From a virus (taxonomy: Duplodnaviria > Heunggongvirae > Uroviricota > Caudoviricetes): a DNA stretch of 64,000 bases. The position numbers and the translations under genes are program-made. The stretch lies in the IMG/VR virus record IMGVR_UViG_2645727948_000011, one strand, 5' to 3'. Of this stretch, positions 47,099 to 48,661 are shown piece by piece; the stretch's first letter is position 1; every line of letters begins with the position of its first letter. The notes under the pieces were generated by a model. The model made no database searches and had not been told where the DNA came from. It saw only the letters and a list, made by a program, of their open reading frames with translations.

Positions 47099-48361
47099 TC
47101 AGCGAACGTAAATAGTGCCGCCGTTCTCTTTTTCCCATGCATCGCTACGTGCATAGCAAACATCGAGAAGTCTTCTTGCCGCAGTTTCCTCTAAACCCAA
47201 TTCAACAACCAACTGCTCATGACGGCGGGTAACTACATCAAATAGGCTATGCAGCCCTTTATTGGCCAGTTCATCAATGAATTCCGGTTCGAACGGCAGC
47301 TCTACCTCTGCCAACATAACCTCTTGCGCCCACTCAACTCGACGGACCAGTTCCGGGCGGCGGCTTTCCATCTCTTTACAGATCAATTCATGGAAGAACT
47401 CTACCCAACCTTCCGGCTGGAACTCGCGGAAAATGGCCAACGGCTGGAAGTTTGGCATCAACCATTCGTTGATCCGGATATCAATGGCATAGCCCATGTC
47501 GCAGCAGAACTGATAAGCAAAGTCCAGCTTAGAAACGATATAAGGACGCTCGTTATTGAACTCTTTAGGCGATGAGATCCCATAAGCCAGGAGGCGCGGG
47601 AAGAAGGAGATTTGCCCTAACGTCGGATGAAGTTTGCTTGCAGGGAAACGGCGCTCAGTAATGCCATACATTTCCTTCTTGAGCGTCGCAAATTTGGCAT
47701 TCTCATTAACCAGCGCGGTAACCTCTGCTTTTTTATTAGCAAATGCCACGCGCGCTTCGCTTGCATCTTTAATAGTTTTTTTGAGCTGTTGGTTAAGGTC
47801 GGCGACCTGCTTACGCAGTTCCTGTCGCTCGCTTTTAGCTTTGTTATAGCGTTTCTCAAGGTTAAAAGGATCAAGTTTCATGATCTCTTTATATTGAGAT
47901 TTTAGCGTTGAAATCTGTGAGTTCCGCAGTTCAACCATCGCGGTCATTTCATTGAGTTTTGTTTCCAGCTCAATGCTTATACGTTCGGCATTATCAGCAC
48001 GCTGGTTGGCGTCATGCGTCGCATCGTCGATCGCGTCCTGTTGCTGGCGTTTCAAATGTTCAATTTGCAGCTGAAGCTCTTCAATTTCTTTACCCTTCAG
48101 ACCGAGATCCAACTGCATATTTTCAGCTGCATCTACCAGGGAGTTATGGCTATCAGCTTCTGCGTTATAAACATCAATAAGCTGTGCGTGAAGCATCTCC
48201 GCTGACTGAACCGCATTATCAAAAAAACGTGCTGTGAGGTCATCACAACTAACGCGGCGTTGCGCGGCCCGGATGTTCTGGATAATGGCCGGGATACCGG
48301 CATTCAGGACATCAGGGATAGATACATTTTCGATTGATTGGTTTTGTGCTGAAGTGCTCAT
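47099..48361 (-). CDS. Coiled-coil protein under a double C1 operator
   Basis: 420 aa; N-terminal heptad-rich region. Confidence 0.5.
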   Translation of the reverse strand: MSTSAQNQSIENVSIPDVLNAGIPAIIQNIRAAQRRVSCDDLTARFFDNAVQSAEMLHAQLIDVYNAEADSHNSLVDAAENMQLDLGLKGKEIEELQLQIEHLKRQQQDAIDDATHDANQRADNAERISIELETKLNEMTAMVELRNSQISTLKSQYKEIMKLDPFNLEKRYNKAKSERQELRKQVADLNQQLKKTIKDASEARVAFANKKAEVTALVNENAKFATLKKEMYGITERRFPASKLHPTLGQISFFPRLLAYGISSPKEFNNERPYIVSKLDFAYQFCCDMGYAIDIRINEWLMPNFQPLAIFREFQPEGWVEFFHELICKEMESRRPELVRRVEWAQEVMLAEVELPFEPEFIDELANKGLHSLFDVVTRRHEQLVVELGLEETAARRLLDVCYARSDAWEKENGGTIYVR

Positions 48362-48362
48362 T

Positions 48363-48581
48363 TCAAAGTTCCGTATTAGCTTGTGCTTCGGTCATTTTTC
48401 CTAAGTATGAAGGAGGAAGGACTACGCAATTTGTATCCAGTCCCTCACCTATGGCAGCCTGTAAAATTCTGGCTAAGGTGAGTCTCTTGTTGCGATACCT
48501 GGTGATGACATGCCTGATACCGCCGGTCGGCGTAACAAAGGCGATCAGCCAGTAGTGATATTTCCGTCGGAATGGCCACAT
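48363..48581 (-). CDS. Hypothetical small protein
   Basis: First ORF downstream of the operator pair; AAGGTG RBS. Confidence 0.4.
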   Translation of the reverse strand: MWPFRRKYHYWLIAFVTPTGGIRHVITRYRNKRLTLARILQAAIGEGLDTNCVVLPPSYLGKMTEAQANTEL

Positions 48582-48596
48582 AGTGCACCTTGTAGA

Positions 48597-48613
48597 TTGC
48601 TCTAATAAAAAAC
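48597..48613. promoter_or_regulatory. C1 operator (one of a pair flanking a palindrome)
   Basis: ATTGCTCTAATAAAAAA. Confidence 0.7.
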
Positions 48614-48644
48614 GTGATGAGTGTACATCACGTTTTAAAAATAT

Positions 48645-48661
48645 GGAATTATTAGAGCAAT
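48645..48661. promoter_or_regulatory. C1 operator (second of the pair)
   Basis: GGAATTATTAGAGCAAT. Confidence 0.7.

Follow-up and report, generated by a model that had tools for sequence, protein, structure and literature searches.

The pmgR-pmgS operon of a P1-type phage: a promoter that appears nested in a terminator-like hairpin between paired C1 operators

The DNA that we analysed, hereafter the window, is a 64,000-nucleotide stretch from a Caudoviricetes record (IMG/VR IMGVR_UViG_2645727948_000011), and the locus studied here carries two open reading frames on the minus strand. pmgR (48363..48581, 72 aa, phrog_3177) has an SD sequence, AAGGTG, at 48586-48591, and its stop codon lies one base from the start of pmgS (47099..48361, 420 aa) in the string TGAAATG; the sizes given for both in a first-pass annotation of this DNA hold. 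The region is 98.2% identical to phage P1 (AF234172) over 2001 bp, its closest relative being RCS47 (99.3%). Operators, both open reading frames and their neighbours are collinear with P1, P7 and RCS47 at 98-99% identity, with a gene order common to P1 and the window (ppp-pmgQ, then pmgR-pmgS, then pap), and 687 plasmid records contain the region.

The first-pass annotation had proposed that two genes form an operon controlled by paired C1 operators, and had suggested P1, at the equivalent map position, for comparison. The P1 record annotates exactly such a pair: AF234172 82152-83714 is the pmgR-pmgS operon with OpmgRa and OpmgRb (formerly Op86a and Op86b), the operator annotation reads 'controls expression of pmgR and pmgS', and OpmgRa, OpmgRb, PpmgR, pmgR and pmgS all fall at matching positions. 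Between P1 and the window there are point differences only, and operator positions and orientations are alike. The P7 record likewise has an operator pair, Op(sht[a])/Op(sht[b]), with the equivalent genes shtA-shtB. The operon and both operators are thus already known from the P1 and P7 records, and their earlier observation in this DNA adds nothing new. Neither public record, however, annotates the hairpin described below or a terminator after pmgS. The P1 record appears to contain no terminator features at all, since an obvious hairpin between the convergent genes dbn and gene 5 is likewise unannotated.

Searching the whole 64-kb window for the C1 consensus ATTGCTCTAATAAATTT with at most three mismatches returned 13 matches against 0.31 expected, a count reached by none of 100 shuffles. 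Two of these matches lie upstream of pmgR: OpmgRa (ATTGCTCTAATAATTCC, 48645..48661, minus strand), equivalent to the protein_bind feature 82152-82168 of AF234172, and OpmgRb (ATTGCTCTAATAAAAAA, 48596..48612, plus strand), equivalent to 82201-82217. Both operators of the first-pass annotation are real, although the copy placed at 48597-48613 was one base off. C1 binding and repression at Op86a/b are taken from the annotation of the P1 record. All 13 core bases are identical between the two operators, which form a perfect inverted repeat (48596-48608 / 48649-48661).

This inverted pair is kept in all 20 distinct variants that we compared (PmgS identity 53-100%), and its end-to-end length is exactly 66 nt in 19 of them and 67 in the remaining one. 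In one clade (L003) a +1 and a -1 indel cancel, and the total length of the pair is preserved. In a relative at 27% identity, too, the same gene pair is preceded by two operator-like inverted repeats of 15 bp. Like Op86, the Op88/pmgT and immC Op99 operators are 17-bp asymmetric sites that overlap sigma-70 promoters, and their units are derepressed after C1 inactivation, as would be the case here. Most other P1 C1 units have single or overlapping bivalent operators, whereas the pmgR-pmgS unit has two separate, monovalent, inverted ones, 49 bp apart centre to centre.

Between the operators lies a perfect palindrome, AACGTGATG-AGTGTA-CATCACGTT, whose 11-bp arms (48609-48619, AAAACGTGATG, and 48626-48636, CATCACGTTTT) are 100% complementary and enclose a 6-nt loop (48620-48625). 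The first-pass annotation was right about its perfection and its place; the loop given there, AGTGTACA, repeats two bases and so has one CA too many, and the arms are 11 bp long rather than 9. Perfect hairpins with at least 11 bp and loops of 3-8 nt are rare: the 64 kb hold six, where 30 first-order Markov simulations give an expectation of 0.03. On the minus strand the hairpin (48609..48636) folds at -13.4 kcal/mol (z -6.0) and is followed by TTATT, or by U6AUU if the last four paired U are included; this U-run is provided by the OpmgRb sequence as read on the transcribed strand. We propose that the hairpin acts as a terminator, or insulator, against transcripts coming from pmgQ. A terminator scan of the window did not call it, because A-U pairing at the foot of the stem takes up four of the U.

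Comparison of variants indicates that the pairing itself is maintained. In a sample of about seven independent lineages, 93% of alignment cells are paired and five pairs have changed on both sides, with a covariation score that none of 500 shuffles reached. G-U or U-G pairs make up 15 of the 165 cells, and these are standard pairs on the transcribed strand only. When the folds of the two strands are compared in 16 variants, the sense strand has the more stable one in nine, the two are equal in three and the sense fold is weaker in four; most of the diverged lineages favour the sense strand. Four single-locus P1 variants carry a stem mismatch. In one lineage (L095) the hairpin is re-registered, GC-richer and followed by a T-run, and the scan calls it terminator-like, as it does the hairpin of L098. 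On these grounds the palindrome appears to work at the RNA level, as a hairpin of the transcribed strand. Canonical termination is doubtful in the L003/L010 clade, since its hairpin is followed by GAUUAGAG rather than by a U-run.

Where does transcription of pmgR-pmgS start? The P1 record predicts PpmgR at the equivalent of 48632..48660 (minus strand), with a -35 box TTGCTC at 48655-48660 and a -10 box TAAAAC at 48632-48637. Counted by hand this TTGCTC-17-TAAAAC promoter scores 7/12, it is not called by our scan, and its -10 box is not conserved, relatives having TGAAGC, TTAAGC or TGCGGC. An alternative candidate on the same strand takes the hairpin loop itself, TACACT (48620..48625), as the -10 box and TCCATA (48642-48647) as the -35 box, with a 16-nt spacer. 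In the window TCCATA-16-TACACT also has a sigma-70 score of 7/12 and is not called by the scan; however, the T, A and T of the loop's TAnnnT are invariant in 15 of 15 variants, and the homologous sites in four diverged clades (TATTAT or TATCAT, with TTTACT or TTGATT 16 nt upstream) are called by the scan as sigma-70 sites, at 9/12. The operon promoter thus appears, from sequence, to be nested inside the terminator hairpin, with operators on both sides. By eye, nothing between pmgQ and pmgR resembles a late (Lpa) promoter, when compared with the -22 boxes of two annotated P1 late promoters, AAGTTACTT and AAATGACTA. Published P1vir RNA-seq papers yielded neither mapped ends of pmgR or pmgS transcripts nor a time course for them that could be used.

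These features suggest a compact regulatory arrangement. In the lysogen, C1 would occupy both operators and so flank the core promoter, Op86a covering its upstream edge, including the -35 box, and Op86b covering the transcription start together with roughly the first 17 bases of the transcript. Repression would therefore shut the unit from both sides, and inactivation of C1 would let it fire early. Transcripts that enter from pmgN-pmgQ, the operon upstream, would fold the 11-bp hairpin, continue into U6AUU and terminate. The unit's own mRNA would begin within the hairpin and be unable to form it, whether the -10 box is in the loop, as we propose, or on the 5' arm, as the P1 record predicts. 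Expression of pmgR-pmgS would therefore depend on its own C1-controlled promoter. A second, stronger intrinsic terminator probably closes the unit 3' of pmgS (AATGCTGGTGG-AGTGCGC-CCACCAGCATT followed by TTTTTCG; 47051..47079, minus strand), with 11 pairs, six of them G-C, and a T-run; it is among the six perfect 11-bp hairpins of the window. We infer both the position of the promoter and termination from these sequence features. A search of 46400-49500 against Rfam returned only SNORD12 and GcvB fragments (E 0.1-0.5).

Intrinsic terminators that overlap a downstream promoter are known from compact phage operon boundaries, and the candidate here resembles them in placing a hairpin and U-run right after the pmgQ stop codon, with an A-tract upstream and the promoter of the next unit within 66 nt. 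It differs from them in that the candidate -10 box is the loop of the putative terminator and the U-run lies inside a repressor operator; the stem is also AU-rich, with four G-C pairs of 11. If the hairpin terminates efficiently, late LPpmgL transcripts would be unable to reach the essential gene pmgR. A terminating hairpin is odd at this place, because pmgR is needed for head completion and would be cut off from them. The resulting model is testable: one essential early/middle gene would be insulated from upstream transcription yet doubly repressed.

Could the palindrome instead belong to the pmgR-pmgS mRNA, as a stem-loop of its 5' leader or as a processing site, with transcription starting upstream? 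The hairpin, or a 24-bp bulged helix including the paired operators, would then stabilise the mRNA, or RNase III would cut it to part the mRNA from pmgQ. Indeed, the full 67-nt stretch folds as one long hairpin (-26.6 kcal/mol, z -10.8), the hairpin of the L003/L010 clade is very stable (-16 to -19 kcal/mol) while having no U-run, and the following unit under operator control, Op88/pmgT, likewise has an A-tract and a hairpin just ahead of its first start codon, where the sense strand lacks a U-run. However, the sole plausible upstream promoter is the one predicted in the P1 record, and its -10 box overlaps the 5' arm; among -10-like elements the loop is conserved best, which would place the start inside the hairpin; and a U-run of 5-6 follows the hairpin in most lineages. 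We regard such a leader as unlikely, though a serious contender.

The palindrome might also work as DNA, either as a site for some dimeric regulator distinct from C1 or as a cruciform that joins the two C1 operators. A perfect inverted repeat centred between inverted operators, the near-constant spacing of these operators and a set of invariant apical bases (G8, T10, G11, T12, A13, T17) would be expected of such a site. The arms, however, drift freely with compensatory changes, and several lineages pair through G-U only, which in a DNA palindrome or on the other strand is a C-A mismatch. Moreover, the L095 hairpin was rebuilt in a different register, the 27%-identity relative has no inner palindrome between its operator-like repeats, and the invariant apical bases are accounted for by a -10 hexamer. 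A role as a DNA site is in our view very improbable, and we retain the reading of the palindrome as a terminator hairpin with a promoter nested in it.

What do the two genes do? Five P1 genes without an assigned mechanism were recently recognised as essential, and pmgR is among them. Its deletion leads to unjoined tails and incomplete heads (PMC9024508), whereas a CRISPRi knock-down scored it as non-essential, contradicting the deletion (PMC10695390). LC-MS/MS of virions found no PmgR (PMC9024508). Its AF2 model has a pLDDT of 84.7, and a fold search with this model gave no convincing match. We see PmgR as probably a small alpha/beta protein that pairs with PmgS across the P1/D6 group. The small D6 ORF upstream of the PmgS homologue is a PmgR relative (hhalign probability 97%). 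The small ORF upstream of the PmgS homologue of an Aeromonas phage was rejected as a PmgR relative (hhalign probability 0.6%).

Deletion of pmgS leaves plating normal (PMC9024508, PMC10695390), and PmgS is unmentioned in the main text and tables of the virion proteome paper (PMC9024508). The protein consists of two long helices (41-160 and 166-232), which we read as an antiparallel coiled coil, a beta-rich middle domain and a C-terminal (HhH)2 domain (~355-413). In the PmgS family, Pfam HHH_5 is matched by 17 of 58 members and RNA_pol_A_CTD by 13, and the family profile matches the RAD51 N-terminal domain with an E-value of 5e-8. P1 PmgS alone has no Pfam HHH_5 match at E <= 0.1, and Foldseek, run with the PmgS model on predicted structures of viral proteins, gave nothing at E <= 0.001, with weak, small HhH-like matches only. 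The first hairpin of the domain is KGLH; for the second, the window has ELGLEE and close relatives have NYDLTP or VHSLQP. DNA binding by PmgS is not assured, because the G-h-G of the second hairpin is degenerate in the P1 clade and P1 PmgS falls below the HHH_5 limit. The N-terminal domains of RAD51 and RAD51C, the C-terminal domain of the RNA polymerase alpha subunit (alpha-CTD) and the acidic repeats of NusA are (HhH)2 domains too, but PmgS carries its own on a long coiled coil and an unassigned beta-rich domain and has no ATPase. Some of these modules (NusA AR, alpha-CTD) dock proteins, not DNA. Rather than forming part of the capsid or sheath, PmgS probably serves early DNA transactions as an accessory that docks DNA or protein. 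Taken as one claim, our full account (a P1-type pmgR-pmgS unit, Op86a/b, a nested promoter and terminator, and this role for PmgS) seems to us highly probable.

The first-pass annotation offered a different reason for the double control, namely a kil-like product that is toxic in the lysogen. The pmgR-pmgS unit does have two operators, more than most P1 units, and the only other inverted pair in the window is that of immC, beside one overlapping bivalent operator. Yet expression of pmgR is tolerated, since plaques return when lysogens and the plating host express it from pBAD24g (PMC9024508), and the role of pmgR in virion production is positive and essential (PMC9024508). The normal plating of the pmgS deletion also speaks against harmful products. 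No Pfam match rises above the gathering score (there is no KilA or Ant); Pfam, PHROGs, NCBIfam and PADLOC searches with PmgR, PmgS and PmgQ returned coiled-coil noise (TPR, SMC, Rad50, LmuB) far below cut-offs, neither PmgR nor PmgS comes near any NCBIfam cut-off, and their matches to PADLOC defence models are of the same kind. A toxic product is thus a scarcely credible explanation. Homology to ordinary structural genes, named in that annotation as something that would speak against its idea, is not what we found either: PmgR is absent from the virion proteome, PmgS has a (HhH)2 domain of DNA-binding type, and neither protein has a match to a structural (virion) fold or family.

The products may have a replication- or DNA-related role. 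Tentatively, and as a possibility that we would not call probable, PmgR and PmgS may be read together as an early, C1-controlled DNA-handling pair with no morphogenetic function, governed by an unusually compact control region whose terminator hairpin holds the next promoter's -10 box in its loop and an operator in its U-run. On that same tentative footing, a small adaptor and a coiled-coil (HhH)2 protein might ready P1 DNA for packaging after its replication, acting for instance in the formation or resolution of concatemers or in presentation of the pac site. If this were true, the heads and tails left unjoined by the pmgR deletion would reflect a packaging-substrate defect, as with pacA. The (HhH)2 module in its conserved partner PmgS points to the next experiments on pmgR.

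The label 'PmgS-like head morphogenesis' is weak, because distant PmgS homologues lie among early recombination and methylase genes: in the Aeromonas phage phiARM81mr the homologue adjoins exoVIII, RecT, integrase and Dam genes, and in a Vibrio phage it adjoins YfdP/YfdQ and a methyltransferase. The PHROG name for pmgR and pmgS merely echoes the P1 label. Through PHROGs and RefSeq, this label and 'putative morphogenetic function' have spread to unrelated phages, in which the homologues have recombination and methylase genes as neighbours, and both labels are called into question.

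A search of the whole window with ATTGCTCTAATAAATTT, the P1 C1-operator consensus, allowing three mismatches, returned 13 sites where 0.31 would be expected. Two of them, at 48596-48612 (+) and 48645-48661 (-), are identical over their first 13 bases and form a perfect inverted repeat. Between them lies another perfect inverted repeat, whose arms, AAAACGTGATG (48609-48619) and CATCACGTTTT (48626-48636), are 6 nt apart. The consensus search and inverted-repeat analysis thus confirm the double operator around a perfect palindrome described in the first-pass annotation. Two details change: the first operator copy starts one base earlier than proposed, and the loop read as 'AGTGTACA' counted CA twice, the true loop being AGTGTA between 11-bp arms. 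Perfect hairpins of this size number six in the 64 kb, against 0.03 expected; one is loxP and two bracket the pmgR-pmgS operon. All the features first noted fall in the 81-bp gap between the stop codon (48663) of a 233-aa ORF and the ATG at 48581 of a 72-aa ORF (48363-48581, -), which is followed one base later (TGAAATG) by a 420-aa ORF (47099-48361, -).

The region is 98.2% identical to P1, 97.9% to P7 and 99.3% to RCS47, and 687 plasmid records contain the same stretch. In the P1 record (AF234172), the two ORFs are pmgR and pmgS, OpmgRa (formerly Op86a) is a 'monovalent C1-controlled operator' that 'controls expression of pmgR and pmgS', the second site is OpmgRb (Op86b), and a predicted promoter, PpmgR, lies between both; the P7 names are shtA and shtB for the genes, Op(sht[a]) and Op(sht[b]) for the operators. 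A published list of 21 'extremely conserved' genes in P1-like phage-plasmids includes both (PMC9603915). Since the same features are annotated in the P1 and P7 records, operon and operators are already known and our finding is a rediscovery. Neither record annotates the strong intrinsic terminator that our scan detected between pmgS and pap (47051-47079, -; 11-bp stem, six G-C pairs, T5), which makes pmgR-pmgS a closed two-gene unit. The labels of two neighbouring products look outdated, judging by profile matches: PmgQ (48663-49364, -), labelled 'putative morphogenetic function', hits a PHROG whose annotation is glycosyltransferase (E 1.6e-127), and Pap (46520-47026, -), labelled 'acid phosphatase', hits Pfam HAD_PNKP (E 3e-11), the phosphatase domain of HAD type in polynucleotide kinase-phosphatase.

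We collected 103 related loci, among which the control region occurs in 20 distinct variants. The operator-hairpin-operator module is present in every lineage with the pmgR-pmgS pair in which PmgS is 53-100% identical. Counted over both complete operators, the module is 66 nt long in 19 variants, and the remaining variant has 67 nt; this length is held despite heavy divergence of the inner 40 nt; in one clade (L003), a +1 and a -1 indel offset each other and leave the module length unchanged. Is the palindrome a DNA site for a protein or an RNA hairpin? In the alignment 93% of cells are paired, both sides have changed in 5 of the 11 pairs, and the covariation score was reached by none of 500 shuffles. 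G-U or U-G combinations, which are standard pairs only in the RNA of the transcribed strand, occupy 15 of 165 cells (summed over the per-pair table). Of 16 variants, 9 fold more stably on the sense strand, 3 fold equally well on either strand, and 4 are more stable on the antisense strand, these being three single-locus P1 variants and a diverged lineage (L091). One lineage (L095) has a hairpin rebuilt in another register, richer in GC and with a T-run after it, which the scan called terminator-like. Together, the covariation, the G-U pairs, the fold pattern and the re-registered hairpin fit an RNA hairpin and do not fit a protein-binding DNA palindrome. A more distant relative (PmgS 27% identity) carries two inverted operator-like repeats of 15 bp, separated by 16 nt, before the same gene pair, with no inner hairpin between them. 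In locus L099, where PmgS identity is 20%, the hairpin AAAGGGAGCC-AGCT-GGCTCCCTTT (5745-5790), rich in GC, stands directly upstream of an uncalled pmgR-like ORF with a GTG start, with no recognisable C1-type operators there.

The hairpin loop may also hold a promoter element. The T, A and T of TAnnnT are invariant (TACACT in the window, TATTAT or TATCAT in relatives), and the promoter scan independently called a 9/12 sigma-70 site in four diverged clades, with the loop as its -10 and TTTACT or TTGATT as its -35, 16 nt upstream and just beyond the operator a core. The window's own candidate reaches only 7/12 and was not called by the scan. Relatives do not share the -10 that the P1 record predicts (TAAAAC, 48632-48637); in its place they have TGAAGC, TTAAGC or TGCGGC.

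We infer from these features a mechanism in which transcripts from upstream pmgN-pmgQ would fold the hairpin and terminate at the U6AUU stretch that comes after it on the minus strand and doubles as the A/T-rich end of Op86b. Whichever -10 is right, the pmgR-pmgS promoter would lie inside the hairpin: a -10 in the loop would give a start at about 48613-48615, that of the P1 record one at about 48625. Either start being inside the hairpin, the pmgR mRNA would lack the 5' arm and so be unable to form it. Op86a would cover the upstream edge and the -35, and Op86b about +1 to +17, placing C1 on both sides of the core promoter, which would explain the conserved operator spacing; the terminator at 47051-47079 would close the unit ahead of pap. 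The model is weakened by the low score of the window's own promoter candidate, by the absence of a U-run in the L003/L010 clade, and by the consideration that an efficient terminator would sever the essential pmgR from late transcription starting at LPpmgL. A live rival is that the hairpin is a 5'-leader element or an RNase III site, and the whole 67 nt does fold at -26.6 kcal/mol. The nested promoter-terminator reading is a small addition to the known annotation.

An early operon under double operators stands as first proposed, whereas published data argue against the kil-like product suggested with it. Gonzales et al. (2022) deleted 29 P1 genes: without pmgR no infectious particles formed and lysates held tails and incomplete heads; plaques were restored by pmgR on pBAD24g, a construct that the plating host carried too (PMC9024508). 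Going by its description, we find this phenotype similar to the one given there for the pacA packaging mutant. PmgR went undetected in the virion proteome, HHpred gave nothing, and the pmgS deletion plated normally with normal anti-restriction (PMC9024508). A CRISPRi screen scored both genes non-essential, and its authors say that pmgR was missed (PMC10695390). These data do not show a structural role for PmgR or PmgS.

PmgS homologues comprise 29 proteins in a word-indexed search and 117 cluster representatives in a full profile search. The AF2 model (pLDDT 76.6) has an N-terminal helix, two long helices (residues 41-160 and 166-232) meeting at an LDP motif (163-165) invariant in twelve aligned relatives, a beta-rich domain and a C-terminal helical module. 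We read the long helices of this model as a probable antiparallel coiled coil. By profile evidence, the C-terminal module is assigned as an (HhH)2 domain, a small addition to the record: 17 of 58 family members match Pfam HHH_5 and 13 the RNA polymerase alpha-CTD family, and the family profile matches the RAD51 N-terminal domain (E 5e-8). P1 PmgS alone gave no HHH_5 match in Pfam at E <= 0.1, and close relatives have a degenerate version of its second hairpin motif. In two database proteins (P0002, P0016), both single-member clusters, PmgS sequence is joined to a domain of cytosine methyltransferase or metallophosphoesterase type, probably through gene-calling or assembly artefacts.

Distant PmgS homologues outside the P1/D6 group have early-region locations: that of Aeromonas phage phiARM81mr lies between exoVIII-RecT-integrase and a Dam methylase (L101, 4632-5852), and that of Vibrio phage 1F273_PE002 between YfdP/YfdQ and a methyltransferase (L102, 4297-5412). 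The latter record carries the propagated note 'PmgS-like_head_morphogenesis' despite this early location. D6 and two relatives of ~98 kb, taken from metagenomes or read assemblies, keep the pmgR-pmgS pair (L005 1-3040, L099 1-4672, L103 1-2026); there a giant methylase-helicase gene like darB lies a few genes upstream of it, whereas in P1 the pair follows ppp-pmgQ. We read PmgS as an accessory protein of the early phase that docks DNA or protein, and not as a component of capsid, scaffold or sheath.

Elsewhere in the window, a 28-aa hydrophobic ORF, MNTAFKIIMAAIYFWLFSITFGGIVAHG (46335-46421, -), lies between Op88 (46504-46520) and pmgT, with a good Shine-Dalgarno sequence (AGGAG) 7 nt ahead of its ATG and, upstream, an A-tract and a 10-bp GC-rich hairpin (46449-46471); AF234172 has no CDS at this position, only overlapping misc_features. 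At 31079-31108, 31154-31253 and 31701-31717 lie the loxP site (ATAACTTCGTATA...TATACGAAGTTAT), itself among the six perfect hairpins of 11 bp, and next to it a second inverted C1-operator pair and a third site; the region matches immC/coi/imcA-B of P1-like phages. At 62686-62728, overlapping C1 operators (62691-62707, +; 62702-62718, -) form a bivalent palindromic operator.
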